Below, piece after piece: positions 9,991 to 53,132 of a stretch of 53,132 nt of DNA. This stretch comes from a bacterium (GTDB lineage: Bacteria > Patescibacteriota > Minisyncoccia > Phycocordibacterales > UBA9973). Made by a program: the position numbers and the translations under genes. Where the stretch lies: the NCBI GenBank assembly GCA_037132055.1, contig JBAXPX010000002.1, positions 1 to 53,132 of the forward strand, read 5' to 3'. Position 1 is the stretch's first letter; each line of letters opens with the position of its first letter. The notes under the pieces are model-generated. The model was not told the DNA's origin and did no database searches. It saw only the letters and a program-made list of their open reading frames with translations.

Positions 9991-10386
9991 ATGATTAAGA
10001 CTAAATTTATAAATTGGACAAATTATTTTAATAAGAAATCATACATTGTTTCTGTATTTATTGTAGGTATCTTTTTGCCATTTATTTTTGTTTTTGCTCA
10101 AGGAGAGTCATGTGATCCTGGCTTGGGGAAGATTTGTAATCCAATAAGTGCTACGTCTATAACAGAATTAATAAGAACCATCTTGGAAGGGGTTGTAAAA
10201 ATAGGTATTCCCGTTATCGCTCTCGCTATAATTTATTGTGGTTTCCTTTTTGTTCAAGCCAGAGGAAAGCCAGGTGAGATCGAAAGAGCAAGGAATTCAT
10301 TGATTTATACATTGCTTGGGGCAGCGATAATACTTGGGGCATGGGCAATAGCTCAACTTATAACCGAAACAGTTCTCGCATTATAA
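9991..10386 (+). CDS. VirB2/TrbC-like pilin-like protein, paralog 2
   Basis: Signal peptide (...FVFA/QG), a Cys pair, and helix-loop(ARGKPGEIERAR)-helix topology. Confidence 0.6.
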   Translation: MIKTKFINWTNYFNKKSYIVSVFIVGIFLPFIFVFAQGESCDPGLGKICNPISATSITELIRTILEGVVKIGIPVIALAIIYCGFLFVQARGKPGEIERARNSLIYTLLGAAIILGAWAIAQLITETVLAL

Positions 10387-10831: not shown

Positions 10832-11227
10832 ATGAAAAAGCAATTAATCGTATTATCAAGTTTAGGATTAGTATTAGCACCACTTTTTGTATTTGCTCAA
10901 AACTTTGCACAATGTGGCAGCACTCAGATGGGGATTGGAGCAGTTTTATGTAAAATTGCATCTATACTAAATACAATTATACCTATAATAGTTGTCTTGG
11001 GTGTTGTGTATTTTGTTTGGGGAGTTGTGCAATATGTCATCTCAAGTGATGAAGAAGCAAAGAAAACAGGCAGGATGCGAATGCTTTATGGAATAATCGG
11101 ACTTGTTGTTATTGTTGGTATGTGGGGTCTTGTAAGAATAGTAACGAATACTTTTGATCTAAATAACACACAACAGGGACTTAATCCTCCTTGTGTTACG
11201 GGCACACCAGGGTGTATGCCACAATAG
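10832..11227 (+). CDS. VirB2/TrbC-like pilin-like protein, paralog 4
   Basis: Signal peptide (...FVFA/QN), Cys pair, VWGVVQYVISSDEEAKKTGRMRMLYGIIGL core, and a Cys-containing C-terminal tail. Confidence 0.6.
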   Translation: MKKQLIVLSSLGLVLAPLFVFAQNFAQCGSTQMGIGAVLCKIASILNTIIPIIVVLGVVYFVWGVVQYVISSDEEAKKTGRMRMLYGIIGLVVIVGMWGLVRIVTNTFDLNNTQQGLNPPCVTGTPGCMPQ

Positions 11228-12844: not shown

Positions 12845-12928
12845 TGCCGAGGGGGAGACTTGAACTCCCATGAGATTACTCTCGCTTGCTCCTAAGGCAA
12901 GTGCGTCTGCCAATTTCGCCACCTCGGC
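12845..12928 (-). tRNA. tRNA-Leu (anticodon UAG)
   Basis: Manual cloverleaf: acceptor gccgagg/cctcggc, anticodon stem cttgc/gcaag with loop cuUAGga, long variable arm, T-loop ttcaagt. No encoded CCA. Confidence 0.88.
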
Positions 12929-12976
12929 ATGTAAAAACAATATGACAATTAAAAAATTTATACAATTTTTTAATTG

Positions 12977-13049
12977 TCCGCCCTGAAGGGATCGAACCTT
13001 CGACCTTATCCTTAAGAGGGATCTGCTCTACCAGCTGAGCTAAGGGCGG
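12977..13049 (-). tRNA. tRNA-Lys (anticodon CUU)
   Basis: Manual cloverleaf: U8, D-arm gctc-agctggta-gagc, anticodon loop cuCUUaa, T-arm gaagg-ttcgatc-ccttc, acceptor ccgccct/agggcgg (C1-G72). No encoded CCA. Confidence 0.85.
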
Positions 13050-13069
13050 ATAAAAATTATTAAGTTGTG

Positions 13070-13153
13070 TGCCCAAGGTGGGAATCGAACCCACACGACC
13101 TTGCGGTCACGAAATTTTAAGTCTCGCGCGGCTACCAATTACGCCACTTGGGC
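13070..13153 (-). tRNA. tRNA-Leu (anticodon UAA)
   Basis: Acceptor gcccaag/cttgggc, anticodon loop cuUAAaa, long variable arm (gaccgcaaggtc), T-loop ttcgatt. No encoded CCA. Confidence 0.88.
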
Positions 13154-13183
13154 TTTAAAATATTATATGGCATCTCTGCCATG

Positions 13184-13255
13184 AGGCCTGGGGCGGAATT
13201 GAACCGCCGCATAGAGATTTTGCAGATCTCTGCCTTACCACTTGGCTACCAGGCC
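13184..13255 (-). tRNA. tRNA-Cys (anticodon GCA)
   Basis: Acceptor ggcctgg/ccaggcc, anticodon stem gagat/atctc with loop cuGCAaa, T-arm ggcgg-ttcaatt-ccgcc, discriminator U. Confidence 0.88.
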
Positions 13256-20370: not shown

Positions 20371-20454
20371 TGCGCCGGGTAGGATTCGAACCTACGTAGC
20401 CCGAAGGGCGACTGATTTACAGTCAGTTGCAATTGACCACTCTGCCACCGACGC
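20371..20454 (-). tRNA. tRNA-Tyr (anticodon GUA)
   Basis: Acceptor gcgtcgg/ccggcgc, anticodon stem actga/tcagt with loop cuGUAaa, long variable arm (gccc-ttcg-gggc), T-arm gtagg-ttcgaat-cctac. Confidence 0.88.
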
Positions 20455-23852: not shown

Positions 23853-23896
23853 ACTTCTTCATGAAACGTTCATAGATTTAATTTATATTGTATAAT

Positions 23897-25201
23897 ATGA
23901 TGATGAAAATCAGGAAGAATTTGCCGTTGATTGTTATAATAATTTTGGCTTGGATTCCTATTAAAATATGGTTTTCTATGGAGCCCGTGTCTATTCGTTT
24001 TTTTGATTTAAATTCTACAATGACGAGTTTGGGACAAATCACTGGGCTATTGGGGATGATTTTATTTTCTATCAATTTAATTCTGAGTAATAGATCTCAT
24101 TTTTTTGATAAATTTTTTTCTGGGTTACATATTTTTTATGATCATCATAAATGGCTTGGAGCCGTTTCTTTTTCCCTACTTTTATTTCATCCACTTTTTT
24201 TAGTTGTAAAATATATTACTATTTCGATAAATAGTGCAGCATTGTTTTTGTTGCCAGGAACAAATTTTGCAATTACTATGGGAATAATTGCGCTTGGCTT
24301 AATGATTATACTTCTAGTAGCTACTCTTTATATGAAGATCAAGTATCATATTTGGAGATTTTCACATAAGTTTATGGTTGTAGTTTTTATATTTGCAATT
24401 TTACACACTTTATTTATTTCAAGCGACGTATCGAATAATATGTTTTTGAGATATTATATTTTTGTCTTTGCGATTTTAGGGCTTATCTCGGGTGCTTATA
24501 GATCATTTTTTCGAGTTTTCTTTAACAAAGATCATGAATTTAAAGTTGTGGGCATAAATACGCCAAGTGATAATGTCACTGAAATAGAAATAGAACCGAG
24601 AAATTCAAAAATGGAGTTTTTTCCAGGACAGTTTATCTTTATAAGATTTGTTGAAGTTGGAGTTAGCTCCGAGCCGCATCCTTTTTCTATCACTTCCACA
24701 AAAGGAGATAAGAATTTAAAAATAGTAATTAAATCATTGGGAGATTACACTAGTAAAATTGGAAACTTGAGACCTGGAGCAATTGCAAAAGTTGAGGGAC
24801 CGTTTGGTAGTTTTTTTAAAAATCGGGATATTTCCAAAAAAGAAATTTGGATTGGAGGTGGAGTAGGCATTACACCGTTTTTAAGTCTTGCTAGAAGTTT
24901 GAAGAATGTAAGAAATGATATTTATTTGTTTTATTGTTTAAACGACACAACTGAAGCTGTATTCTTGAAAGAATTGACGTCCATATCCGTTACTAATAGT
25001 AGGTTCCACTTAATAACTTGGTATGCCAAAGAGAAAGGGTGGATAAATGCAGATAAGATAAAAGAATTAACCAATGGTGTTTCTGATGCATATATTTATA
25101 TTTGCGGACCACTTTCGTTTATGAGAGCTCTAAAAGAACAATTTATAGAAAAAGGAGTCGATAAGAATAATATTAATTTTGAAGAATTTAACTTTTTATA
25201 A
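23897..25201 (+). CDS. Ferric-reductase-domain flavocytochrome (NOX/FRE-like: 6-TM bis-heme domain + FAD + NAD(P)H domains)
   Basis: His pairs HKWLGAVSFSLLLFH and HKFMVVVFIFAILH in TM helices; FAD motif HPFSITS; NAD(P)H motif GGGVGITPF; C-terminal ICGP. ATG at 23897 is preferred over TTG at 23888. Confidence 0.75.
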   Translation: MMMKIRKNLPLIVIIILAWIPIKIWFSMEPVSIRFFDLNSTMTSLGQITGLLGMILFSINLILSNRSHFFDKFFSGLHIFYDHHKWLGAVSFSLLLFHPLFLVVKYITISINSAALFLLPGTNFAITMGIIALGLMIILLVATLYMKIKYHIWRFSHKFMVVVFIFAILHTLFISSDVSNNMFLRYYIFVFAILGLISGAYRSFFRVFFNKDHEFKVVGINTPSDNVTEIEIEPRNSKMEFFPGQFIFIRFVEVGVSSEPHPFSITSTKGDKNLKIVIKSLGDYTSKIGNLRPGAIAKVEGPFGSFFKNRDISKKEIWIGGGVGITPFLSLARSLKNVRNDIYLFYCLNDTTEAVFLKELTSISVTNSRFHLITWYAKEKGWINADKIKELTNGVSDAYIYICGPLSFMRALKEQFIEKGVDKNNINFEEFNFL

Positions 25202-25202
25202 T

Positions 25203-26090
25203 ATGAAAAAACTAACAGGAATTTCTTTGTTTATATTTTTTTGTGTTATGACTGCAATTTTGACTGCGGGCCTTGTTTTTTATCAAGACAATAAAAATAA
25301 TAATTTAAATACAGGATTAACGAATCAAAATAAAACAGCAGATATTACAAATTTACTATCTTCTGGAATTACTGTTTTAGATTCCAAAGAAATAGCTAAA
25401 CATAATACAAATGCGAATTGCTGGATTATTGTTAACAGTAAGGTTTATGATATTTCAAACTATGCCTCTGCTCATCCTGGTGGAACAAGAAGCATTTTAG
25501 ACTACTGTGGAAAAGAAGCAACGGTTGCTTTTGATACAAAAGGAGGAAAGGGAAATTCTCATTCTACGTCTGCGAATAATTTACTAGCGCAGTATTATAT
25601 TGGAAATTTAAACCAAAAACTTAGCCAGAATACATTAAATCAGAATGTTCAAAATGCAAAATCTAATTCAAATAATTCCAATAACTCAAATAATAATTTG
25701 AATAATAATGTAAATAATCCAACACCAACACCACCACCTGTCGGGAATGTTGTATTGAATTCTCAGGAAGTTGCAAAACATAATACGGTTTCTGATTGCT
25801 GGATGATTATAAATAACAAGGTTTATAATCTTTCTGATTATGCGGGAGCTCACCCAGGTGGAACACAAAATATTACAAACTATTGTGGCAAGGAAGCAAC
25901 TGTTGCTTTTGATACAAAGGGGGGTGTAGGCAATCCACACTCCACTTCTGCTAATAATTTGTTGGCCCAGTATTACATCGGAGATTTAAATCAAAATATT
26001 AGTCAAAATACATTAAATCAAACTATTCAAAACACTCAACTAAATCCTCCCCCACAAAATAATAGGGGTGGAGATGGGGAAGACGATTAG
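25203..26090 (+). CDS. N-terminally anchored protein with two tandem cytochrome b5-like heme-binding domains
   Basis: Two copies of ...VAKHNT...CW.I.N.KVY..S.YA.AHPGG......CGKEATVAFDTKGG.GN.HSTSANNLLAQYYIG.LNQ, separated by an Asn/Ser/Pro-rich linker. ATG at 25203 follows directly after the upstream stop. Confidence 0.7.
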   Translation: MKKLTGISLFIFFCVMTAILTAGLVFYQDNKNNNLNTGLTNQNKTADITNLLSSGITVLDSKEIAKHNTNANCWIIVNSKVYDISNYASAHPGGTRSILDYCGKEATVAFDTKGGKGNSHSTSANNLLAQYYIGNLNQKLSQNTLNQNVQNAKSNSNNSNNSNNNLNNNVNNPTPTPPPVGNVVLNSQEVAKHNTVSDCWMIINNKVYNLSDYAGAHPGGTQNITNYCGKEATVAFDTKGGVGNPHSTSANNLLAQYYIGDLNQNISQNTLNQTIQNTQLNPPPQNNRGGDGEDD

Positions 26091-26126
26091 CCATTTGTTG
26101 TTTTTTAAAAAGTATGTTATTATTAA

Positions 26127-26150
26127 AAAAAGCCAGAAGGCTTTTTTTGA
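26127..26150 (+). terminator. Rho-independent terminator after the cytochrome b5 gene
   Basis: aaaaaaagcc-agaa-ggcttttttt. Confidence 0.6.
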
Positions 26151-26160
26151 TTAAATCAAG

Positions 26161-43089: not shown

Positions 43090-43761
43090 ATGTCTATAAG
43101 AAAAATAAATTTTGTAGAGGGGGAATATTATCATATTTATAATCGGGGTAATAGTAAACAAAAAATTTTTAATGACAAAGAAGATTATTTAAGATTTATT
43201 TCTTTACTTTATATTTCTAATTCAAATGAAGGATTTAGATTTTTTAACACATCTAGAAATATGAGTATCTATGAAATAGATAAAGGTAGTCCTTTAGTTA
43301 GTATTGGAGCGTATTGTTTAATGCCAAATCATTTTCATATATTAATAACTCAAAAAAAGAAAAATGGTATCAGTCAATTTATGCAAAAATTAAGTACCGG
43401 ATATTCAATGTACTATAATAAAAAATATGAAAGGACTGGCAGTCTTTTTGAAGGTAAATTCAAATCACAGCATTTAGGTACAGATAAATATTTAAAATAT
43501 TTGTTTTCTTACATTCATTTGAATCCAGTAAAATTAATTCAAAACGACTGGAAGGAGAAGGGGATTAAAAATAAAAAAGATGTTATTGATTATTTAGAGA
43601 AGTATTCTTATTCAAGTTATTTAGATTATTTAAATTTTGAATCAAAAAGGCCAGAGTTCAATATATTGACTCCAAATTTTTTCCCAGAATATTTCCCAAC
43701 AAAAGATAAATTTCAAAAAGAAATCTTTGAATGGCTTTCATATGACATTATGCAAAGTTGA
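43090..43761 (+). CDS. REP-associated tyrosine transposase (RAYT) / IS200-like Y1 HUH transposase
   Basis: YHIYNRGN, YCLMPNHFHILI (HUH = HFH), and catalytic Tyr region YIHLNPV; 223 aa. Confidence 0.85.
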   Translation: MSIRKINFVEGEYYHIYNRGNSKQKIFNDKEDYLRFISLLYISNSNEGFRFFNTSRNMSIYEIDKGSPLVSIGAYCLMPNHFHILITQKKKNGISQFMQKLSTGYSMYYNKKYERTGSLFEGKFKSQHLGTDKYLKYLFSYIHLNPVKLIQNDWKEKGIKNKKDVIDYLEKYSYSSYLDYLNFESKRPEFNILTPNFFPEYFPTKDKFQKEIFEWLSYDIMQS

Positions 43762-44117: not shown

Positions 44118-47100
44118 ATGAGAAAATTTCTCCAAAGAATAATTAAAAAGTTCAGAAGTTCTAATATTTGGCTTATAGATAAAAAGAATCTGAGTTCTTT
44201 TTATCGTATTCGTGTCCGTGATAAAAAAATCATTACAAATTTTAAAATTACTAACTTAAAAAATCAATTAACAATTAAATATAAAATTATGCCCAGCATC
44301 ATTTCACTAAATCAAATGAAAAACTTATTAAAAAAAATAAATAAAGAAAGAAAAAATATTTTTTTCTTTTTAAAACAAATTAAGAAAATAAAAAGAACAC
44401 AGCTTGTCGGACTTGTTTTGATTTTTTCAGTAGTTTCTTTTTTTTATAATCCAAAACCAGTTCATGCTGCTTGTGCTCTTTCTGGAACCATAGCTACGAG
44501 TTACAACTGGGCAGGTTGTGCCGGAGAAGCGACCATCAGCGGTAGTGTGACTTTCGCAGCAGGAACTCATAATCTAGGTGCTACTAATTTGACCATCAAC
44601 AGTGGTGGGACACTTATCCCTGCGCCTTCTAGTACTACTGTAAATGGTGCGACGGGAGTGACAATAAACACTACCGGGAATATTACAGTGGCTTCTGGTG
44701 GAACTATCAATGGAAATGGCCAAGGATACACTGGAAGAAGTTATGCTTCTGGTAGTCCACTTGGTCAGGGCTATGGTGAAGGTGGTGGAACAAGAGGTTA
44801 TTATGGTGGAGCTGGTGGAGCTCATGGTGGAGCTGGTGGAAAAGGAAATGCTAGTAGTGTGAGAAATACAACTACTTATGGTAGTGCAACTAATCCAGTT
44901 AGCTTGGGTTCTGCTTCAGGGGCATCGAATGGTACTAACATATTCAATCCTGGTGGTGGAGCAATAAAATTAAATGCATCGGGAACTGTCACTATCAACG
45001 GAACAGTTTCTGCTAATGGAAATTCGGGGACTGGAACAAGTGCTGGTGGAGCGGGAGGAAGTGTTTGGATAGTTGCTGGGACTTTGACGGGTTCTAATTC
45101 GGCAACTATTTCGGCTAATGGTGGAGATGGAGCAGGAACTTATAGTACTAATGCTGGTGGAGGAGGTGGAGGAGGAAGAATTAGTTTACAAACTTCTGGC
45201 ACAGATACTTATGCTGGATCAATAATAGTTGAAGGAGGTTTGGGGCTAGAAGGAGGAGAAGCAGGGACACTAGAGAGAACTGTTGGAACTCCGGGTGATA
45301 TTATTATTGCAGCTGGGAGTACTGTTACTTGGACAAGGGGTGAACACACTTTTCATGATTTAACAATTCAATCAACTGGTGTCCTTACGACCGGTGAAGC
45401 TGAAGCTGCAGGAGGAGGCAATAATTCCAATGGCCCATTTATTGGTGGAGGACCTGGTCCCGGATTAAGTGGTGATAAGGGTGGAGGTGGTGGAGGGCAC
45501 GTTGGAGCTGGTGGAACTGAAGGTGGCGGAACAAGGGCAGGAGTTGGTGGTAGTGCATACAATAGTGATGGACTTCAAGTGACACAGCCAACAGATATGG
45601 GATCAGCTGGTGGAGGTTCTGCGCAAGATGGTCTTGGTAGTTATGGAGGAGGAGCAATAAAATTAACTATAACGGGGACTTTGACAGTAAATGGTAAAAT
45701 TTTAGCTGATGGTCAATCCAATGGAACTAGCGGTGGAGGATCAGGAGGAAGTATTTGGATAAATGCGCCTACGGGCACAGTGAATTCTACCGGTGGAGAA
45801 TTTTCTGCACATGGTGGAGTTGCTGGAACTGGTACAGCCAACAATGGAGGCGGCGGAGGATCAGGAGGAAGAATTGCTTTTAATGCGGGAACAAAAAATC
45901 TCAGTGCTATTACTGTTGACGTCGCAGGTGGTACGGGAGTAAATAATGGTGGAGACGGAACTGTCTCGGGGTTGCTTTATTCATCGATCACTTCTCCAAC
46001 GTCTGCAGCTAGAAATACTTTTACATCAGTAACAGGAACTGCGGCAGACTATAGTGGGGCGACACTTGGTTATGTTGATGTTTCTATTTATAATGGAAGC
46101 CAATATTGGAACGGTTCTAGTTTTAATCAAGCTAGTGAATATTGGTTGAGAGCGACAGGAACTTCTTCTTGGAGTTATGCGGTGAGTGGACTTACGAGTC
46201 CGGGTGTTACCTTGACAGTACACTCGAGAGCGAAATCTGGAAGAGGAGTTGAATCTTTTTTTGAAACACCTGGAACAGGAGTAACTTTTAATTTAGATAC
46301 TGTTGCGCCGACCCTAGCTACTGTCACAGCTATACCAACTGCTACAAATGACAACACTCCAAACTATATTTTTTCTTCCACAGAAGCCGGAACCATAACT
46401 TATGGTGGATCATGTAGTTCTGCCACAACTTCAGCAACATCTGGATCAAATACTGTTACTTTCAATACACTTACTGATGGAACATACAGCAACTGTACAG
46501 TGACAGTTACTGATGCAGCGACAAATGCTTCGTCTGCACTTTCTGTGCCTACGTTTACTGTTGATACAGTTGCGCCTACCGCTCCCATCGCAGTCACATT
46601 TACTGCAACAGGTGGAAATGTTTTAGCAAATACTTTAAATTCTACAAATACAAACTTTACAGCAGGTGCAACTATAACTGCAGCAGATGCAACTGGTGGA
46701 ACAGCAGAACTTTTGAAAGGTGGTGCATCTTTTAGTCCAGCTATAATGGATAGCAGTATTTCTGCTGGAGATACGACTGTGACATTTAACGCAGGACTTG
46801 CAAGTAATGCAGCCGTGCAGACAGCATTTGCAAGTGGAGCAGCACTTTCAGTAAGACTTTGCGACCTCGCAGGAAACTGCACAACGAGTTCTGTATCAAA
46901 CCCTACTATTACTGTCGACTACATAGCACCAACAAATCAAGATTCTGTATTAACGGCAGATGCTATGTTTAGATCGAGTGGCACAGTGACGATAGCAAGC
47001 TCAGGAAATGCTACAAACAATATTTGGATCGCGCCACTTGGCACGACTAGTTTTACAGCAGGTTCTACAATGACGACAGCAGGAGGAACATCTACTACTA

Positions 47101-50100
47101 TTCTTTCTCCTTCAGCTGAGGGAACTTATCGTTTGTATGTCATCGATGCAGCAGGGAACGTATCAGCTGCATCTACACACACAGTCATAGTAGACTCGAC
47201 TGCACCTACACCAAGTGCACCGACAAATACTGCCCAGAGATTAAATAGTGAAAGTCTTTCTAACTCAACTGTTCAGATAAATGAAGCGGGGACGATATAT
47301 TTAGTAAAGACAGGTACTGGACCAGTAGCGGCTCTTCCTGATACTGCGAATTTAACAAATATGGTTATCAGTAATTCACCATCAAATTATACTTTCTCTG
47401 GTGGAACATATAATTATAATGGTGTTACTGTGCTCAGCACTGTAACAAGTGTCACAGTAACTCCGACAGGAGCAGGGACTATCACAGTAAATGGAATGAC
47501 AGTGACATCAGGTCAAGCATCAGGAGCAATTGCTCTTACTGCTGGAGTAGAAAGAGTGATCGATGTAGTGGCTACAGAGTCAGGAAAAAATCCAAGGATT
47601 TATACGATTAGGATAATAAGAGGTCCGACGTTAGGTACAAGTTGGCAAGGTGGTAAAGTTGCTTATGTTAATGGGTCTGGGGGGTTTATAGTAACGGACA
47701 ATGACATAACTAGTGCAGACAATGCTTCTTGTTCTGCTGTACACCCAATTGGACAAGGACAAGGAGCAGGTACAGGATCAGCAATAGGTACAGGAAAGGC
47801 AAACACAGATGCACTTGTAGCACTTTGCGGAGCAGGTCCAAACTCTGCTACTGTTGCTCATGCTTTAGTATTAAATGGTTATAGTGATTGGTATGTACCA
47901 TCATCTGGTGAATTCATTACTATGTCATTAAATAAAAACGCAATTAATGCTAATTTTGTCGATTCCACTAATTACTGGAGTTCAACGACTTCCGGCTGGT
48001 TGTCCTCTGTTACTTGTGATATAAATGGGTATTCTTCTTGTGGAGGAAGTGGTTATAATGTAATTAAGCCTGGTCGTGCCATTCGAGACATCACAATAAC
48101 TCCAACTCTTCCAACTCCAACATTCAGTCTAAGTGGAGCAGTTGCTCATGGTTCAACTGTAACAATCACATCTGCTGGAGCCGATGCAATATATTACACT
48201 ACTGATGGTAGTACTCCTACGACGTCATCAACGAATCAAGCGACGACACCACTTGTAATAAATGGACCTGTGACTGTAAAAGCTTTGGCAGTGAAAGCTA
48301 ACTATTATAACGCTTCTAGTCTTGCAACCTTTACTGAAATATTTGATTGGAATAATGAAATCAATGTTGATCACACTGCATTCATAGGCAAATCATCTGC
48401 TGTTGCAGATATTCCATATAGAGTTACATTACCAGCAGGATTGGTAGATGGAGTTTATGACATAATCGGAGTTGACTTGGTTGGAAATACATCAAATGCA
48501 CTTGCTGGCTGGCTGACGGTGGATAATACTGCTCCAACCTTGGCTACGGTCACAGCAGTCACAAACCCCACAAACGACAATACTCCAAATTATATTTTTT
48601 CTTCCACAGAAGCAGGAACTATATCATATGCTGGATCATGTAGTTCTGCCACAACTTCAGCAACGTCTGGATCAAATACTATTACTTTCACTACACTTAC
48701 TGATGGAACATACAGCAACTGTACAGTGACAGTGACTGACGCAGCGACAAATACTTCGTCTCTACTTTCTGTGCCTTCGTTTACAGTTGATACTGCTGGT
48801 CCAACAGTCACCCTTACCTCTAATGATCCTGATCCAACAAATGGAACTATAAATGTTAGAGCGACATTCGGTGAATCAACCACAAACTTTGTAGTAGGAG
48901 ATATTACAGTCACAAATGGTACTGCAGGTAATTTTACAGGTAGTGGAATGGTATATGATTTTGAAATTACTCCAACTACTGACGGAACAGTATCAGTCGA
49001 TGTCAATGCAGGAGTAGCGACTGATGCAGCAGGAAATCCTAACTCTGCAGCAACACAATTGACGAGATTGTATGATAGTATTAACCCTACTTCAACTATC
49101 ACACCTATATGTAGCACTCCGGGCAACGGATGTACTCCTGCAGGAGAAGCTCAAAATCCACCAGGATCATATGGGGTGAGGTCAATAGTAGGTAGCGCAT
49201 CAGATGCTACAGGTGGAGCTGGAGTTAGTACGGTAGAAATTTCTATAAAAGATACAAATGCAAATGTTTGGTATAGTGGCACATCTTTCTCTGATGTGAG
49301 CGAGACATACCTTCCAGTCACGACAGGCACGACTACGTGGAGTTATAATTCCTCTGGAATATCACTTGAAATCGGACATGTCTATCAAGTAAATGTGAGA
49401 GCGACAGATGGAGCAGGGAACGTAGAAAGTCCCGTGCAAACTCTTTCATTTGAATTTACAAACTCTCCGCCGACTGTTTCAAATGTATCTGCATCACAAA
49501 ATTCAAGTGGAGTAGTAAGTGTGTCTTATAATGTTACAGATAATGAATCTACACAAACTTCAAATTCTCTATTCTATTGGTCAGGTTCTACTCTCAGTGG
49601 AAATATTTCAAGTGCAGTGACATCATTGACTACATCAAATGTAACAAGTTTCCCAACTTCTGGAACTATTTTGATAGATGATGAAATTATAAACTATGCA
49701 AGTAAGTCAGGAAATGTATTGCAAGGTCTCACAAGGGGATCGGCAATAAATTATCCTACTACTTCAAATACAACGACACCGTTTGCGCACTCTTCAGGAG
49801 CACAAATATTTATTTATGCTACTTCTGCTACGGGAGATATTGGTTTGTTGAATAAAGGTACAGGGAAAAATATAACATGGACTGCAAGTGCTGATGCAGA
49901 TGGTTATGAAAATATAAATGAAATTATAAAAGTTGTTGCAAACGATGGATCTACAGGTTCGATGGTTGGATCTTCGCTGTCTTCTATATTTATTCTTGAC
50001 GCAGCGAAACCAACGATAAATGGCACAACACTTTTGATAAATGACACTGATGCTGATGTGATAAGTTTATCACCTAATATAACTCTCAAACTTCAAAATA

Positions 50101-53100
50101 TAACTGGGCATCCTGTTGACGAAAATATTTTTGTGCAATTCTCAAGAGATGGGGGAACTACTTGGTATGGAGCAAACGCAGATGGAACTCTCTCGGGATC
50201 AGGGACAATGGGGACAGGATTTTCTTCTAGCTTGACTGTCATCGGCGCGCTTTCGTGGCCTTGGACTATGACCTCAAGATCAGAAACCATAACTGTAAAA
50301 ATAACAGACAGCTATGGAAACTATGCAGAAGACACAAACACTGTCGGGTATAATGCTCCACCAGAATTCAATGTCGACTATCCTTCGACTAGTGCAGGTG
50401 GGCTCAGTGTTGTTCAAGTAGCTGACAAAAATGATGCGAATTTTGGAAAAGTAAAAATAGAATATTCTATTCGTGATACTGACACAGACGTGGACACAGT
50501 TCCAGGGTTTGTGACTCCTACATTTAGTTACAATACTGGTAGTGGGTGGAATACGATAAATGACGTGGATATTGTTTATGCAACTGCGCCAACTGGAGGA
50601 CAAATAATAGATCAAAATACTGATGGAGTTCGTGATAATAAAGTTTCAACTTCTTCATACTATATCTATACAGCATACTGGACACCGACAACTAATATCG
50701 AAACTGCAACTGCACAATTTAAACTCTCGATCAGTGACTTGGAAACAAATAACAGCACTACGACTAAAGAAATTTCTAATTTACTAATAGATTCAAAAAA
50801 ACCAGTGGTTACTCCGATCACGTTTGACGCGGGAATAGCAGGATCACCAGAGTCTGCTTTGGTTACCATACCTATGCCTACTGATTTATCTAGTGTTCAA
50901 TATAAAATCAAAGATGATTCTTCAAATTCTAATCCACAAGATACTGGTTGGAAAAGTATAAACGAAAGTACAACCATACCGTGGACGTTTGATTCTGTTT
51001 TGGGAATAAAAACATTAAAGTATCAATTCAGGGATGCTTATGAAAATACTACAAACGAAGTGTCCACTTCAACTCTTACCCCCGTCGACTCTAATTCATT
51101 TGTAGTACAAGATGCATCAAATCCGAGAATTCCTTCGTATGATATGTATATCAGTTGGAAGGCGATAACCGATGCAACGGGGTTTGATTCGTATAAATTA
51201 GAATTTGCAACTTCTACTGACAATTCATTCTTCTCAAGTTATCAATCTATCGGGACCGGGATGGATAGTTCTACTACAAATTATTTTGTTCACAGGAGTC
51301 TAGATCCGACAAAATATTATAGATATCGATTAGGAGTAGTAGGGACCAATGGAAATATTTCTGTTCGCTCAGGAGGATATGTCACTGCTAAGCCAGATGG
51401 AATTCAGAATTTTGGTGAAGGTAGTGGAGGGGGTAGTGTGGCTGCTGCTTCTCAAGTAGAAAATGTTGTTCCAGTCCAAGGTTCAGATAAAAATGTTACT
51501 GTTACTTATAAACTCACAGACCCATCTTTGTCGAACAAAACTGATCCTTTGTATGAAGCAAGAGTTTTCTATAATATCGGTATAACATTGCCGACAAATG
51601 CAGATGCTGGAGGAAATATAAAAGTATCTGATGCTTCAAAACTTAAATCTTCAGGATATATTCAAATAAATAATGAAGTTATAAAATACACTGGAAAATC
51701 TGAAAATACCTTAACAGGGATAACGAGAGGAACTTGGCCTACAGATATAACGACTAACCGTGTCACCAGACAAAATCCGTTATTATTTGCAGGTACACCA
51801 GTATGGGTAATGGCTTCTACGACAGCCATAAATACTATTGCAAACAATAGTATTGCTTATGGTCAAAATGGAACTATTACATGGACTACATACGATGAAT
51901 CAGCACTAGCTGGCGGAGTTTACAATAATGTTGGCATCAGAGTTCTAGTACACGACAATCAAGATGCTGGTTCTGGACCACTTTCGAGTCAGAGTGATTA
52001 TTCAGAAAACGGAATATTAAATATTTTGGATTTAAATACTCCGACGATTGGATTTGACACGACGCATAGTTCTGGTTTGGAAAGCGTAACTCCTGCCGTA
52101 TTTACTATAAACTTGAATAGAATTTATCCGAGTGCTGTGAGTGTAGACTATACTGTTGCCGGTACTGCAGTAGGTGGTGGAACAGACTATACACTTGTAA
52201 ATGGGACAGCGACAATAACAGCAGGACAAACTACGACGAGCTTGAGTGCTGTGATTGTGAACCATAATCAAGTAAGACCAAACAAAACAATAATTATAAC
52301 TCTTTCAAATCCTGTGAATGCAACTTTGGGAGCTAATAGTGTTCATACTTATACAATAATAAATCACGACACAAGTACTACACCTCCAACAGTCACTATC
52401 GTTCCGCCAAGTGTAATGCACGTACTCAGTGGAACTGTTTGGGCAGATCAAGATCCGGGCGCAACAGCTACGGATACAATAGATGGTGATCTTACTTCTA
52501 GTATAGTTGTTACTGGTGCTCCGTCTATGAATACTCCAAGCACAACTCCGTATACTGTCACATATTCTGCTACAAATAGTTCAGGGCAGACGGGAACTGC
52601 AACTCGTGAAGTTTATGTCGATGACGCAAATGCTGCAACATTTGAAATAACAGCGATTCAAAGTACTGGTGGTTTGATCTCACCAGAAAATGCTACGACT
52701 GTGCAAGTTCATTCAGATCAGGCTTATACTATTACTCCAGACGAATGGTATAAAGTTGACAGTATTACAATAGACACAAATCTTCCACTTGCGCCAACTG
52801 CAGGAGTAAATCATTACACATTTACAGATGTTACTGCGCCTCACACGATCACAGCAGCATTTTCTGCATTGCCTGATACAACTCCACCAGTTATCCTCAT
52901 AACAGGACCAACGACAGTCCAACTCACTGTCGGTGATACATATAGTGACCAAGGTGCAACAGCTTCAGACACATATCTTGGAGTTACTACTCCATTGACT
53001 GATTCGATTGAAGTATTTAGTAATGTAAATAATTTAATTCCAGGAACTTATCAAGTCAGATATACAGTCTCCGACTCCGCCGGCAACACAGCCACTGCCA

Positions 53101-53132
53101 CAAGAACAGTAGTAGTTTCTTACAATGAAACT
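44118..53132 (+). CDS. Giant membrane-anchored multi-domain surface protein (adhesin-like), 5-prime part only; at least 3005 codons and open at the window end
   Basis: Hand translation of the frame starting at 44118 (in-frame TAA at 44115-44117) shows no stop through 53132. Alternative in-frame ATGs lie at 44289 and 44316. TM/signal segment is TQLVGLVLIFSVVSFFY...VHA. Gly-rich repeats, many Ig-like modules, and Calx-beta-like and DUF5011-like modules follow. This ORF is absent from the supplied ORF track. Confidence 0.9.
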   Translation, partial: MRKFLQRIIKKFRSSNIWLIDKKNLSSFYRIRVRDKKIITNFKITNLKNQLTIKYKIMPSIISLNQMKNLLKKINKERKNIFFFLKQIKKIKRTQLVGLVLIFSVVSFFYNPKPVHAACALSGTIATSYNWAGCAGEATISGSVTFAAGTHNLGATNLTINSGGTLIPAPSSTTVNGATGVTINTTGNITVASGGTINGNGQGYTGRSYASGSPLGQGYGEGGGTRGYYGGAGGAHGGAGGKGNASSVRNTTTYGSATNPVSLGSASGASNGTNIFNPGGGAIKLNASGTVTINGTVSANGNSGTGTSAGGAGGSVWIVAGTLTGSNSATISANGGDGAGTYSTNAGGGGGGGRISLQTSGTDTYAGSIIVEGGLGLEGGEAGTLERTVGTPGDIIIAAGSTVTWTRGEHTFHDLTIQSTGVLTTGEAEAAGGGNNSNGPFIGGGPGPGLSGDKGGGGGGHVGAGGTEGGGTRAGVGGSAYNSDGLQVTQPTDMGSAGGGSAQDGLGSYGGGAIKLTITGTLTVNGKILADGQSNGTSGGGSGGSIWINAPTGTVNSTGGEFSAHGGVAGTGTANNGGGGGSGGRIAFNAGTKNLSAITVDVAGGTGVNNGGDGTVSGLLYSSITSPTSAARNTFTSVTGTAADYSGATLGYVDVSIYNGSQYWNGSSFNQASEYWLRATGTSSWSYAVSGLTSPGVTLTVHSRAKSGRGVESFFETPGTGVTFNLDTVAPTLATVTAIPTATNDNTPNYIFSSTEAGTITYGGSCSSATTSATSGSNTVTFNTLTDGTYSNCTVTVTDAATNASSALSVPTFTVDTVAPTAPIAVTFTATGGNVLANTLNSTNTNFTAGATITAADATGGTAELLKGGASFSPAIMDSSISAGDTTVTFNAGLASNAAVQTAFASGAALSVRLCDLAGNCTTSSVSNPTITVDYIAPTNQDSVLTADAMFRSSGTVTIASSGNATNNIWIAPLGTTSFTAGSTMTTAGGTSTTILSPSAEGTYRLYVIDAAGNVSAASTHTVIVDSTAPTPSAPTNTAQRLNSESLSNSTVQINEAGTIYLVKTGTGPVAALPDTANLTNMVISNSPSNYTFSGGTYNYNGVTVLSTVTSVTVTPTGAGTITVNGMTVTSGQASGAIALTAGVERVIDVVATESGKNPRIYTIRIIRGPTLGTSWQGGKVAYVNGSGGFIVTDNDITSADNASCSAVHPIGQGQGAGTGSAIGTGKANTDALVALCGAGPNSATVAHALVLNGYSDWYVPSSGEFITMSLNKNAINANFVDSTNYWSSTTSGWLSSVTCDINGYSSCGGSGYNVIKPGRAIRDITITPTLPTPTFSLSGAVAHGSTVTITSAGADAIYYTTDGSTPTTSSTNQATTPLVINGPVTVKALAVKANYYNASSLATFTEIFDWNNEINVDHTAFIGKSSAVADIPYRVTLPAGLVDGVYDIIGVDLVGNTSNALAGWLTVDNTAPTLATVTAVTNPTNDNTPNYIFSSTEAGTISYAGSCSSATTSATSGSNTITFTTLTDGTYSNCTVTVTDAATNTSSLLSVPSFTVDTAGPTVTLTSNDPDPTNGTINVRATFGESTTNFVVGDITVTNGTAGNFTGSGMVYDFEITPTTDGTVSVDVNAGVATDAAGNPNSAATQLTRLYDSINPTSTITPICSTPGNGCTPAGEAQNPPGSYGVRSIVGSASDATGGAGVSTVEISIKDTNANVWYSGTSFSDVSETYLPVTTGTTTWSYNSSGISLEIGHVYQVNVRATDGAGNVESPVQTLSFEFTNSPPTVSNVSASQNSSGVVSVSYNVTDNESTQTSNSLFYWSGSTLSGNISSAVTSLTTSNVTSFPTSGTILIDDEIINYASKSGNVLQGLTRGSAINYPTTSNTTTPFAHSSGAQIFIYATSATGDIGLLNKGTGKNITWTASADADGYENINEIIKVVANDGSTGSMVGSSLSSIFILDAAKPTINGTTLLINDTDADVISLSPNITLKLQNITGHPVDENIFVQFSRDGGTTWYGANADGTLSGSGTMGTGFSSSLTVIGALSWPWTMTSRSETITVKITDSYGNYAEDTNTVGYNAPPEFNVDYPSTSAGGLSVVQVADKNDANFGKVKIEYSIRDTDTDVDTVPGFVTPTFSYNTGSGWNTINDVDIVYATAPTGGQIIDQNTDGVRDNKVSTSSYYIYTAYWTPTTNIETATAQFKLSISDLETNNSTTTKEISNLLIDSKKPVVTPITFDAGIAGSPESALVTIPMPTDLSSVQYKIKDDSSNSNPQDTGWKSINESTTIPWTFDSVLGIKTLKYQFRDAYENTTNEVSTSTLTPVDSNSFVVQDASNPRIPSYDMYISWKAITDATGFDSYKLEFATSTDNSFFSSYQSIGTGMDSSTTNYFVHRSLDPTKYYRYRLGVVGTNGNISVRSGGYVTAKPDGIQNFGEGSGGGSVAAASQVENVVPVQGSDKNVTVTYKLTDPSLSNKTDPLYEARVFYNIGITLPTNADAGGNIKVSDASKLKSSGYIQINNEVIKYTGKSENTLTGITRGTWPTDITTNRVTRQNPLLFAGTPVWVMASTTAINTIANNSIAYGQNGTITWTTYDESALAGGVYNNVGIRVLVHDNQDAGSGPLSSQSDYSENGILNILDLNTPTIGFDTTHSSGLESVTPAVFTINLNRIYPSAVSVDYTVAGTAVGGGTDYTLVNGTATITAGQTTTSLSAVIVNHNQVRPNKTIIITLSNPVNATLGANSVHTYTIINHDTSTTPPTVTIVPPSVMHVLSGTVWADQDPGATATDTIDGDLTSSIVVTGAPSMNTPSTTPYTVTYSATNSSGQTGTATREVYVDDANAATFEITAIQSTGGLISPENATTVQVHSDQAYTITPDEWYKVDSITIDTNLPLAPTAGVNHYTFTDVTAPHTITAAFSALPDTTPPVILITGPTTVQLTVGDTYSDQGATASDTYLGVTTPLTDSIEVFSNVNNLIPGTYQVRYTVSDSAGNTATATRTVVVSYNET
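46300..46565 (+). repeat. Intragenic repeat A (Ig-like module ...NDNTPNYIFSSTEAGTITYGGSCSSATTSATSGSNTVTFNTLTDGTYSNCTVTVTDAATN...)
   Basis: About 90 percent identical by eye to 48526-48791, offset 2226 nt (742 codons, in frame). Identical runs of 33 and 42 nt. Confidence 0.85.
48526..48791 (+). repeat. Intragenic repeat B (second copy of the same Ig-like module)
   Basis: See repeat A. Shared runs are tggatcatgtagttctgccacaacttcagcaac and tacacttactgatggaacatacagcaactgtacagtgacagt. Confidence 0.85.

Follow-up and report, generated by a model that had tools for sequence, protein, structure and literature searches.

Two neighbouring genes on contig JBAXPX010000002.1 of a bacterium assigned to the Patescibacteriota (assembly GCA_037132055.1), one resembling NADPH oxidases and ferric reductases and the other a cytochrome b5, raise the question whether they code for a device by which electrons from cytoplasmic NAD(P)H are passed to the outside of the cell. 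CPR and DPANN organisms are regarded as lacking electron-transport chains, and bacterial NADPH oxidases (NOX) are a family with solved structures and a physiological role that is not known. With respect to the whole stretch of 53,132 nucleotides that was analysed, hereafter the window, a minimal trans-membrane electron conduit appears to be the best-supported reading of the two genes. It builds on domain architectures, cofactor motifs, ligand residues, topology signals and a tight and widespread coupling of the genes, all of which were directly observed.

Organisation of the locus

Both open reading frames that a preliminary description of this DNA had placed on the forward strand were recovered, and the start codon of gene 2 follows the stop codon of gene 1 after exactly one base, as had been claimed there. 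The locus is laid out as follows:

23897..25201, + strand: gene 1 (ATG at 23897, stop codon TAA at 25199-25201; 434 amino acids)
25203..26090, + strand: gene 2 (ATG at 25203, stop codon TAG at 26088-26090; 295 amino acids)
23869..23896, + strand: promoter-like site (TTCATA, 16 nt, TATAAT), abutting the ATG of gene 1; weak consensus match
26122..26151, + strand: hairpin resembling a terminator (stem of 13 bp with AGAA loop, then a U-run), located between gene 2 and the gene for a typA/bipA-like GTPase

Alternative starts of gene 1 are given by the ORF list (TTG at 23888) and by the database gene call (23903). The gene upstream is mgtA (TIGR01524 match, 1062 bits), in agreement with the earlier assignment, and as only 44 nt separate its stop codon from gene 1, read-through from mgtA into gene 1 is possible. 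The promoter-like site has 10 of 12 consensus matches, sites of this kind being no more frequent in the region than in shuffled sequence; if functional, it would give rise to a leaderless or near-leaderless gene 1 mRNA. Downstream of gene 2, where a terminator had been noted at 26127-26150, the hairpin folds with -13.9 kcal/mol (z -2.7) and is absent from the output of a simple terminator scan.

The genes flanking the pair code for a DUF1361 protein, MgtA, a BipA-like GTPase and a sigma-like protein. A P-type ATPase gene (mgtA) is found near the b5 gene in 9 of 80 loci, all from close relatives, and the mgtA neighbourhood therefore represents lineage-specific synteny by descent and lies outside the unit; a functional link of the pair to mgtA or DUF1361 was rejected, since distant pairs have unrelated surroundings. 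Pfam scans of the window detected neither a histidine kinase nor a response regulator, and there is no molybdoenzyme gene among the neighbours (mgtA, the b5 gene and the typA-like gene). Elsewhere in the window, the stretch from 44 to 53 kb, which seemed to be free of ORFs and has a higher GC content, turned out to be one giant ORF running off the window, and it gave no RNA family matches.

A predicted flavocytochrome of the SpNOX type

Bacterial NOX have been characterised by six TM helices, a His-X12/14-His pair in each of TM3 and TM5, a C-terminal FAD/NAD(P)H region and the cyanide-insensitive, NAD(P)H-dependent conversion of O2 to superoxide (Hajjar et al. 2017, PMC5676040). Every one of the sequence features in this list was found in gene 1, the product of which is, judging from its sequence, a bacterial NOX/ferric-reductase flavocytochrome of the SpNOX type. 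A six-TM di-heme domain (residues 1-208) precedes a cytoplasmic FAD/NAD(P)H dehydrogenase domain (residues 209-434), and Ferric_reduct (49-168), FAD_binding_8 (215-290) and NAD_binding_1 (319-413) score above the curated Pfam cut-offs. Of the families that the preliminary description had named for gene 1, Ferric_reduct and FAD_binding_8 were thus recovered, whereas NAD_binding_6 remained sub-threshold (16.5 bits versus a cut-off of 22.2), with NAD_binding_1 in its place.

The six TM segments proposed for the Ferric_reduct domain were also seen by hydropathy, with K/R-rich loops on the N-terminal/dehydrogenase side, and in the AF2 model (pLDDT 82), which has six long helices before residue 201. 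The NOX/FRE architecture claimed for the whole protein is borne out by sequence as well as by fold, since the best PDB sequence match is SpNOX (8qt6, E 3e-37, residues 50-433), and since SpNOX also heads the Foldseek results for the AF2 model (TMt 0.82), followed by NOX2, DUOX1 and NOX5. The residues and segments of interest in gene 1 are:

24146..24406, + strand: heme-ligand His codons (His84 at 24146-24148 and His98 at 24188-24190 in TM3; His157 at 24365-24367 and His170 at 24404-24406 in TM5)
24677..25111, + strand: dehydrogenase cofactor motifs (HPFSITS, FAD, at 24677-24697; GGGVGITPF, NAD(P)H, at 24854-24880; CGP at 25103-25111)
24188..24283, + strand: extracytoplasmic TM3-TM4 loop (His98 to Gly129, 32 residues; 14-residue insertion relative to SpNOX in the alignment)

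The two His pairs have the spacing of 13 and 12 residues previously given for them (His84-X13-His98 and His157-X12-His170), and all four histidines are invariant in 14 homologues and aligned with the SpNOX histidines; the inner heme would be ligated by His84 and His157 and the outer heme by His98 and His170. Likewise, the cofactor motifs were located where expected in the dehydrogenase domain (HPFSITS at residues 261-267, GGGVGITPF at 320-328 and CGP at 403-405), their HPF, GGxGxTPF and CGP cores being invariant in 14 gene 1 homologues. SpNOX (PDB 8qt6, 8qq7) is thus similar to gene 1 over nearly the full length, sharing six TM segments, bis-His pairs in TM3 and TM5, HPF(S/T), GxGxTPF/CGP and a C-terminal aromatic residue, but identity in the structural alignment is only about 23%.

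The TM3-TM4 loop may be regarded as a candidate docking surface for the b5 protein. It comprises 29-50 residues in 28 of 28 b5-linked NOX-like genes, and short loops of 18-26 residues are confined to genes that lack b5, 8 of 32 having one and a further gene a loop of 28 residues, a comparison that is confounded by phylogeny. As a marker of b5 partnership, loop length was rejected on account of this confounding and as a long loop is necessary but insufficient.

In E. coli, MsrQ-MsrP (YedZ-YedY) resembles the pair in that a di-heme FRD membrane protein passes electrons to a dedicated extracytoplasmic partner encoded next to it (PMC5676040). However, MsrQ is not fused to a FAD/NAD(P)H domain and serves a molybdoenzyme whose substrate is defined, whereas the dehydrogenase of gene 1 is fused and its presumed partner would be a pure electron carrier. 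An assignment of gene 1 to the MsrQ/YedZ type, which the preliminary description had set against its own reading, was rejected, as gene 1 has its own, SpNOX-like dehydrogenase domain and no MsrP gene accompanies it.

A predicted tethered double cytochrome b5

Gene 2 gives two Cyt-b5 (PF00173) matches in Pfam (E 1.2e-44), and its product is a predicted membrane-tethered double cytochrome b5 of the classical bis-His ('clade-2') type, in line with the two AHPGG ... HS domains that had been recognised in it before. Its parts are:

25221..25277, + strand: N-terminal signal anchor (residues 7-25, preceded by Met-Lys-Lys; predicts N-in, C-out)
25374..25616, + strand: b5 domain 1 (residues 58-138; axial His91 in HPGG and His120 in HS; conserved pair Cys73 and Cys102)
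25617..25751, + strand: Asn/Ser/Pro-rich, disordered linker (residues 139-183; pLDDT <50 at 157-179)
25752..25994, + strand: b5 domain 2 (residues 184-264; axial His217 and His246; conserved pair Cys199 and Cys228)
25995..26087, + strand: C-terminal tail ending in the acidic cluster GGDGEDD; disordered in the AF2 model

The two domains share 75% protein identity, and the duplication suspected at the DNA level extends over 282 nt (25373-25654 versus 25751-26032, 75% identity). In the AF2 model two b5 folds are separated by disordered linkers, of which the one between the domains is the Asn/Ser/Pro linker described before. The axial histidines of both domains, the loss of which would have spoken against the earlier reading, are invariant in 15 homologues and conserved to 90% or more among 228 domains, and 104 of 117 homologues have an acidic tail. 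The best PDB match of the domains is cytochrome b558 of Ectothiorhodospira vacuolata (1cxy; sequence E 1e-16, Foldseek TMt 0.90, 38% identity), in which the HPG and HS ligands recur and the two cysteines occupy equivalent positions; however, b558 is a soluble single-domain protein, whereas gene 2 has two domains and a membrane tether and lies beside a presumed reductase.

Relatives carry 3 to 11 b5 domains, and b5 domains of the same type are fused to Big_7, fn3 and other Ig-like domains. At two loci (L054 and L059) the NOX gene is followed by a single-b5 gene and this in turn by a gene for a protein with 7-8 b5 domains, an order that fits a relay chain. CXXCH motifs were found neither in gene 2 nor in 129 family representatives, and a wire of c-type cytochromes was therefore rejected.

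Tandem b5 arrays that are tethered to the surface, contain flexible linkers and in some cases include Ig-like domains could also be taken for heme-scavenging receptors like the NEAT proteins of Gram-positive bacteria. The NOX-like protein would then either reduce the iron of the bound heme so that the latter can be released, transferred or degraded, or simply be a main consumer of what is captured. The layout recalls that of multi-NEAT heme receptors, the organism, as a member of the CPR, probably has to import heme, and no conserved terminal acceptor gene was found beside the pair among 80 loci. However, the near-invariance of the axial histidines and the closeness of the fold to the electron carriers b5 and b558 argue against a receptor, as does the tight grip of six-coordinate bis-His b5 sites on their heme, such sites being typical of carriers and not of hand-off receptors; moreover, no ABC or Isd-like heme transporter is conserved beside the pair, and heme capture is thus unlikely to be the function of the arrays.

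Oxygen or cytochrome b5 as electron acceptor

Purified SpNOX directly reduces cytochrome c, and its authors consider the exposed heme to be open to periplasmic redox partners and O2 to be perhaps not the physiological acceptor of bacterial NOX (PMC5676040). For SpNOX itself a physiological acceptor is not known, and knocking out its gene causes no phenotype. Unlike SpNOX, for which no such partner is described in PMC5676040, gene 1 is translationally coupled to the gene for an exported b5.

If gene 1 were a true NADPH oxidase, it would release extracellular superoxide for host attack or signalling, and the b5 protein would modulate the enzyme or handle reactive oxygen, e.g., by feeding electrons to a peroxidase or oxidase at the surface. 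SpNOX, the closest characterised relative, which has the same architecture, does make superoxide constitutively in vitro (PMC5676040), but the doubts of its authors about O2 apply here as well, and O2 would face competition from a dedicated heme acceptor, coupled in translation, next to the outer heme. Many of the homologues come, going by record names, from groundwater or sediment metagenomes, and no peroxidase or SOD gene is conserved nearby. Hemes of the b5 type, furthermore, generally have potentials well above that of the O2/superoxide couple and are poor generators of superoxide, which altogether makes such a function quite unlikely. Of the roles put forward in the preliminary description (extracellular iron reduction, redox exchange with a host cell, superoxide production), none is supported as written; superoxide production ranks lowest, since with a dedicated b5 acceptor at hand electrons would be drawn away from O2.

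Coupling of the two genes across genomes

A survey of gene neighbourhoods, as had been suggested, showed that a NOX-like gene adjoins the b5 gene in 50 of 73 informative species-level b5 loci, the neighbourhoods being otherwise unrelated. In 45 of these loci it directly precedes the b5 gene in the same orientation, in the other 5 the two genes diverge, and the stop and start codons of paired genes often overlap. Conversely, a neighbouring b5 gene was found for 16 of the 20 close relatives of NOX and for 12 of the 40 distant relatives. The divergences of the NOX and b5 proteins are correlated (r 0.58, Mantel 0/2000). By these comparisons, the pairing is not a matter of chance, and the two genes form what is evidently a conserved unit.

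Co-transcription of two heme proteins without direct electron transfer, e.g., under common regulation by heme or iron, would be compatible with the finding that the NOX and b5 families each also occur alone. However, some 50 species-level lineages (40-75% identity) have retained the adjacency amid otherwise changing neighbours, and together with the overlapping codons and the correlated divergences this renders mere co-regulation very unlikely. The partnership is nevertheless not obligatory, given that it is found in 185 of 1427 CPR ferric-reductase genomes and that in 23 of the 73 b5 loci the NOX gene is missing within 4 kb. Where it is missing, the b5 gene is fused to a DoxX-like membrane domain or followed by a gene for a 2-TM protein with two conserved histidines, and the exported b5 is therefore regularly matched with a membrane partner.

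The pairing had been thought to be new for bacteria of this kind, but the co-localisation of NOX-like and b5 genes has already been published as a preprint (bioRxiv 10.1101/2021.11.17.468889). There, 185 of 7645 CPR genomes were reported to have a PF00173 gene no more than 10 kb from a PF01794 gene, and for the products a transmembrane complex with an unknown CPR-specific function was proposed; the words 'periplasm' and 'extracellular' are used zero times in that text. The present locus is like these 'pFre / cytochrome b5' clusters in consisting of an FRD gene and a PF00173 gene within 10 kb (here 1 nt) with CPR-type homologues. The clusters detailed in the preprint, however, comprise a MAPR-like, tyrosine-ligated cytb5MY, CBLA/CBLB and a two-component system, whereas the double b5 described here is of the classical bis-His HPGG/HS type, and neither a cytb5MY-like gene nor a two-component system was seen. 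CBLA/CBLB were not seen at the locus by Pfam either, and might be missed, their homologues being 'barely detectable' according to the preprint.

In contrast to the preprint, where the pairing was unseen outside CPR, it was here also encountered in records labelled as DPANN archaea. The b5-family loci belong mostly to Patescibacteria, with few in such DPANN-labelled records, and the nearest homologues are named Patescibacteria, Paceibacterota or Minisyncoccia. Pfam searches on the neighbours at two DPANN-labelled loci (L085 and L069) revealed nothing domain-diagnostic. Several TPA labels reading 'Gammaproteobacteria' or 'Saccharibacteria' look unreliable.

Orientation of the b5 domains

The b5 domains are predicted to face the outside of the cell, and all topology evidence, which consists of the positive-inside rule and comparative signals, agrees on this. 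The positive-inside anchor ascribed to gene 2 is present as MKK followed by the hydrophobic residues 7-25, and a hydrophobic N-terminus was found in 111 of 117 homologues, with K/R before the hydrophobic stretch in 110 of 117. In 4 of the 117 a lipobox (LAGC|T) takes the place of the anchor, and more distant relatives have classical Sec signal peptides. Of 228 domains, at least 90% keep the Cys pair, and its positions coincide with those in b558 of E. vacuolata. In that protein, as described in 1999, the two cysteines reportedly form a disulfide, and b558 is said to be periplasmic. The fusions to Ig-like and fn3 domains also point outward, as the preliminary description had predicted for the b5 domains, and no fusions of NOX with b5 (Rosetta-stone) were found in 160 loci, as expected if the dehydrogenase end of NOX and b5 are on opposite sides of the membrane.

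That b5 instead resides in the cytoplasm, reduced directly by the FNR-like domain as a homologue of NADH-cytochrome b5 reductase and feeding a membrane desaturase or hydroxylase as in eukaryotic membranes, is highly improbable, because the kinship of the dehydrogenase domain with cytochrome b5 reductases (2eix, 7rom) and the JGI label 'cytochrome b involved in lipid metabolism', a generic COG name, are opposed by the C-out prediction for the MKK anchor, the lipoprotein and Sec signals, the conserved Cys pair, the Ig/fn3 surface-domain fusions, the lack of any b5 fused to the cytoplasmic NOX end in 160 loci, the invariant trans-membrane heme ligands that would be left without a role, and the absence of a desaturase nearby.

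A proposed module for electron export

The two genes probably constitute a self-contained trans-membrane module for electron export, leading from NAD(P)H via FAD and two membrane hemes to a tethered extracytoplasmic b5. From the observations above we infer that heme is bound, that gene 1 hands electrons on to gene 2, that they flow outward and that an acceptor takes them up outside the cell. Gene 1 would take hydride from cytoplasmic NAD(P)H onto FAD, and single electrons would then move to the inner heme and on to the outer heme on the outward side of the membrane, which would reduce a b5 heme of gene 2 and not O2. Gene 2 would be held at the same membrane by its N-terminal anchor and flexible linkers, and its two near-identical domains might act as a short relay or as a tethered shuttle away from the membrane. 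The electrons might end up on Fe(III) or some other oxidised species outside the cell, on an extracytoplasmic redox enzyme or on a host cell's surface, and the cell could profit by reducing an external substrate, by re-oxidising NAD(P)H, or in both ways. Patescibacteria are generally without heme biosynthesis, and the three to four hemes per module would therefore need to be scavenged, which counts against the module, as does the finding that no acceptor gene is conserved beside the pair.

Conduits for extracellular electron transfer include the multiheme c-type cytochromes (Shewanella, Geobacter, Thermincola) and the flavin-based Ndh2/EetAB/PplA system (Listeria). The proposed module resembles these in that cytoplasmic reducing equivalents would cross the envelope via a chain of surface redox domains, and multi-domain relatives with up to 11 b5 domains resemble a heme relay. 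It differs from them by having no CXXCH motifs and no FMN-binding or ApbE-type domains, and no quinone step is implied. As the hemes would be non-covalent, of the b type and housed in separate globular domains, any b5 'wire' would work by collisions between domains and not by packed hemes.

Implications for NOX and for CPR biology

For bacterial NOX, a candidate partner is thus encoded one base downstream and conserved in dozens of lineages, and the open question of the acceptor is turned into a simple in-vitro one, namely whether NOX reduces its own b5. We know of no description of exported multi-b5 arrays as an alternative to multiheme c-type cytochromes. It is conceivable, if doubtful, that NOX-like genes together with exported arrays of 1-11 b5 domains represent an unrecognised b-heme pathway of extracellular electron transfer in ultra-small episymbionts, namely Patescibacteria and, provided that their records are labelled correctly, DPANN archaea. 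Organisms without a respiratory chain could in this way re-oxidise NAD(P)H via minerals, acceptors in solution, or a host's surface or quinone pool; the b5 would then be the first physiological acceptor for any bacterial NOX. If true, a module exporting electrons from NAD(P)H would offer CPR and DPANN organisms a route for redox balancing, for the reduction of iron or other substrates, and possibly for a redox link to the host.

Organisation of the locus

With respect to the organisation of the locus, the ORF listing shows that positions 23897-26090 are filled by two co-directional open reading frames separated by a single base between the stop of the first and the start of the second, with the following features:

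Upstream neighbours: a DUF1361 membrane protein gene and a gene for a P-type ATPase that translocates magnesium (TIGR01524, 1062 bits)
23897-25201, forward strand: gene 1, NOX-like ferric-reductase flavocytochrome, ATG 23897 to TAA 25199-25201, 434 amino acids
25203-26090, forward strand: gene 2, double cytochrome b5, ATG 25203 to TAG 26088-26090, 295 amino acids
25373-25654 and 25751-26032: b5-coding direct repeat of 282 nt, 75% identity
26122-26151: hairpin with a 13-bp stem and a U-run
Downstream neighbour: a TypA/BipA-like GTPase gene

The factual statements that the preliminary description had made on this sequence (coordinates, domains, motifs, repeat, flanks and hairpin) were all borne out. 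Gene 1 has alternative starts at TTG 23888 and ATG 23903, and the database copy of its protein comprises 432 amino acids. The hairpin folds with -13.9 kcal/mol (z -2.7) and is absent from the output of a simple terminator scan. No Shine-Dalgarno-like sequence precedes either gene, so that initiation at both may be leaderless or Shine-Dalgarno-independent. At positions 23891-23905 three successive ATG codons are found at the gene 1 start, with an abutting TATAAT hexamer.

Elsewhere in the window the following elements were observed:

9991-10386 and 10832-11227, forward strand: pair of small paralogues containing T4SS_pilin domains (PF18895)
12845-13255, reverse strand: four-tRNA gene cluster
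20371-20454, reverse strand: single tRNA gene, between a ClpB-like gene and the DUF1361 gene
43090-43761, forward strand: IS200-like Y1 transposase gene (PF01797), immediately 5' of the giant surface-protein gene
44118-53132, forward strand: one giant ORF (over 3005 amino acids), running off the window end

The last of these contains bacterial Ig-like domains of the surface type (Bact_surface_Ig-like, Big_12, Big_13, Fn3_assoc) and has a G + C content of about 0.40-0.42, compared to about 0.30-0.36 in the rest of the window. An ORF-free region at 44118-53132 is thus ruled out, and no RNA family matches were found there.

Gene 1 codes for a bacterial NOX of the SpNOX type

Gene 1 scores above the Pfam cut-offs for Ferric_reduct, FAD_binding_8 and NAD_binding_1, and its closest solved relative is the NADPH oxidase of Streptococcus pneumoniae, SpNOX (8qt6/8qq7; E 3e-37, residues 50-433). 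The AlphaFold model (pLDDT 82, pTM 0.76) likewise has SpNOX as its best structural match (TMt 0.82), followed by human NOX2, DUOX1 and NOX5. Hydropathy indicates six transmembrane (TM) segments, and the loops rich in lysine and arginine are located on the side shared by the N-terminus and the dehydrogenase domain, which places both termini in the cytoplasm. The heme ligands His84-X13-His98 in TM3 and His157-X12-His170 in TM5 align with those of SpNOX and are invariant in 14 homologues (47-72% identity), as are the motifs HPF, GGxGxTPF and CGP and the C-terminal phenylalanine. Six TM segments, bis-histidine pairs and FAD/NAD(P)H motifs define bacterial NOX proteins according to Hajjar et al. 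2017 (PMC5676040), and every sequence feature of that family is present in gene 1.

Compared with SpNOX, gene 1 has 14 additional residues inserted in its extracytoplasmic TM3-TM4 loop, as seen in the sequence alignment. This loop has 29-50 residues in all 28 NOX genes linked to a b5 gene, while short loops of 18-26 residues are confined to NOX genes without b5 (8 of 32; one further gene of this group, the ninth, has 28 residues). The comparison, which is confounded by phylogeny, suggests that the long loop may be a docking surface for b5.

The double cytochrome b5 and its predicted orientation

Gene 2 contains two Cyt-b5 domains (Pfam, E 1.2e-44) with every sequence hallmark of the classical b5 family, and in the AlphaFold model an N-terminal helix is followed by two b5 folds, while residues 31-54 and 157-179 form disordered linkers and 283-295 a disordered tail. 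Nearest to its domains amongst solved structures is a prokaryotic b5, cytochrome b558 of Ectothiorhodospira vacuolata (1cxy; sequence E 1e-16, fold TMt 0.90). Each of the two domains has its HPGG and HS histidines and one pair of cysteines (CW...CG); all of these residues are invariant in 15 double-b5 homologues and at least 90% conserved over 228 domains from 120 homologues. The cysteines occupy the same positions as in 1cxy and are not found in the eukaryotic b5 sequences of the same search. In b558 the two reportedly form a disulfide.

The N-terminus of gene 2 reads Met-Lys-Lys followed by a 19-residue hydrophobic segment. Such a segment is found in 111 of 117 b5 homologues, preceded by lysine or arginine in 110, and is replaced in four by a lipoprotein signal (LAGC|T), while distant family members carry textbook Sec signal peptides. 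Moreover, b5 domains of this type are also found combined with Big_7, fn3 and further domains of the Ig-like kind within one protein, and amongst the ORFs of 160 loci none was found in which b5 is fused to the NOX-like protein, both ends of which are cytoplasmic. Because of the anchor with its basic residues, the lipoprotein and Sec signals, the Ig-type domain partners and the lack of such fusions, the b5 domains of gene 2 are predicted to face outward while being tethered to the membrane. An acidic C-terminal tail (e.g. GGDGEDD; gene 2 residues 265-295, window 25995-26087) is kept in 104 of the 117 homologues.

Conservation of the gene pair

A scan with the b5 alignment, using one genome per GTDB species, yielded 169 relatives; 80 loci were retained and scored for a NOX-like gene with custom profiles. 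This gene was located directly upstream of b5 on the same strand, often with overlapping stop and start codons, in 45 loci, and divergently in five, where the b5 genes have three to four b5 domains; it was absent within 4 kb in 23, and in seven the upstream flank was too short for scoring. The NOX-like gene thus adjoins b5 in 50 of the 73 informative loci. In a converse test on 80 metagenomic loci retrieved with the NOX alignment, a b5 gene adjoined 16 of the 20 informative close NOX relatives (80%; profile score at least 450) and 12 of the 40 more distant ones. Pairwise divergences of the two proteins are correlated (r 0.58, with 0 of 2000 permutations as high). The synteny of the window recurs in a close relative whose b5 protein has just one b5 domain, and in distant homologues with b5 proteins 43-46% identical the order of NOX followed by b5 is kept in otherwise unrelated neighbourhoods. 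This conservation argues for gene 1 and gene 2 being a functional unit. Each family also occurs without the other, and no acceptor gene is conserved near the pair in the neighbourhoods of the b5 loci.

The b5 family was also observed in records labelled Woesearchaeota, Pacearchaeota, Aenigmatarchaeota or Micrarchaeota. Amongst these DPANN-labelled records, whose labels are taken from the records alone, the NOX-b5 pair is present in L069, L080 and L085 (on a 1.56-Mb scaffold), and b5 without NOX in L022, L049, L067, L075, L076 and L082; Pfam searches of the genes around L069 and L085 gave nothing domain-diagnostic.

The wider b5 family and alternative membrane partners

The 120 top-ranking homologues comprise 31 single-, 72 double- and 16 triple-b5 proteins and one with four b5 domains. 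In a library of representatives, where 269 clusters matched with an E value of 1e-30 or lower, the arrays comprise up to 11 domains. The latter number is found in P0241 (1252 amino acids), and P0253 and P0263 are also very large exported tandem-b5 proteins (7 to 11 domains). In two homologous loci from the scan the NOX-like gene is followed by a single-b5 gene and then by an exported large tandem-b5 protein:

L054, 2084-5713: eight b5 domains
L059, 3527-6763: seven b5 domains

Some large tandem-b5 representatives have classical Sec signal peptides and a HEGG variant of the heme motif, and these probably stem from non-CPR bacteria. Domains within one protein are 46-83% alike, usually more than orthologous domains across proteins, which suggests that the copies were repeatedly duplicated or homogenised. 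As this would be expected for equivalent relay units, the wider family appears, as judged from sequence comparison, to point to an electron relay.

Loci without NOX usually contain one of two other candidates. One is a DoxX/DoxD-like N-terminal domain with 3-4 TM segments fused to b5 (L022, L025, L031, L044, L067, L071, L075, L082), to which Big_7, fn3 or cupredoxin-like domains are sometimes added; records labelled DPANN archaea or Methanoregula are the source of several such fusions. The other is a protein of about 95 amino acids with two TM helices and the conserved histidine motifs KKIHRxLV and RYLHN, encoded directly downstream of b5 in 12 loci (L032, L033, L037, L038, L042, L043, L046, L056, L057, L065, L077, L084; e.g. 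L032:4868-5155, directly 3' of the b5 gene), none of which has a NOX-like gene. The Pfam similarity of this protein to PepSY_TM, DUF4405 and cytochrome b561 is weak and sub-threshold. It may serve the exported b5 as a minimal membrane partner that binds heme. The occurrence of one or the other arrangement where NOX is absent suggests that exported b5 is regularly paired with a membrane partner. In L005, on a 2-Mb contig, four neighbouring b5 genes were observed, one fused to DUF2231.

Proposed electron path and competing explanations

From the domain architectures with their ligands and motifs, together with the topology signals and the coupling of the genes, all of which were observed, we infer the following path. 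NAD(P)H would reduce FAD in the cytoplasmic domain of gene 1, and the electrons would cross the membrane via the inner heme (His84/His157) and then the outer heme (His98/His170). The latter would reduce a b5 domain kept close by the gene 2 tether, and the second b5 domain, attached through a flexible linker of 45 residues, might take the electrons farther out to an external acceptor. Support comes from the relative SpNOX, which in purified form reduces cytochrome c directly, and its authors considered the exposed heme to be reachable by periplasmic partners and the physiological acceptor to be possibly not O2 (PMC5676040). Electron transfer from gene 1 to an outward-facing gene 2 seems reasonably probable to us. 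Its weak points are that CPR bacteria are generally unable to synthesise heme, that either family can stand alone and that no acceptor gene is conserved near the pair.

Amongst the alternatives, a role of the b5 arrays in heme scavenging appears unlikely, and the production or handling of ROS is a quite doubtful explanation. That the two genes are adjacent yet functionally independent would agree with their separate occurrence elsewhere and is improbable given the conserved pairing. A cytoplasmic b5-reductase system is hardly credible in view of the export signals.

Relation to known systems and significance

Gene 1 as an MsrQ/YedZ protein is ruled out, as its dehydrogenase is fused and MsrP is lacking. 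The proposed logic of a ferric-reductase domain feeding a dedicated extracytoplasmic partner nevertheless resembles that of MsrQ-MsrP. Extracellular electron-transfer conduits are similar in proposed purpose; however, the pair has neither CXXCH hemes nor flavin-binding surface domains.

The preliminary description took the pairing to be undescribed, which is incorrect: a preprint of 2021 that deals with the origins of MAPR reported PF01794 from 1427 of 7645 CPR genomes, with a PF00173 gene within 10 kb in 185 of those 1427, did not see this co-localisation outside CPR, and proposed "a putative transmembrane protein complex" (bioRxiv 10.1101/2021.11.17.468889). The clusters detailed there differ in arrangement, combining a tyrosine-ligated MAPR-like b5 with a two-component system; neither "periplasm" nor "extracellular" appears in its text, and orientation and SpNOX homology are not discussed. 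In a paper on Vampirococcus, cytochrome b5 is merely named among CPR electron carriers. As regards the co-localisation of the genes, the module was therefore partly anticipated, and it is not categorically new, while its mechanistic reading is new as far as could be determined in a severely limited literature search. Beyond the preprint, the NOX partner is identified as SpNOX type, and the b5 as the classical bis-histidine type, in which export signals are consistent and a cysteine pair is conserved; further additions are the coupling of 80% among close relatives of the gene 1 NOX, the b5 arrays of up to 11 domains, the two alternative membrane partners, and the pair in L069, L080 and L085, DPANN-labelled by their records alone.

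Gene 1 and gene 2 are a real, conserved and well-formed two-gene module, which we propose to transport electrons across the membrane by means of a NOX-family protein, with the exported b5 as its dedicated acceptor. What bacterial NOX proteins reduce would thereby have a candidate answer that can be tested directly, and organisms without a respiratory chain might export electrons by this route.
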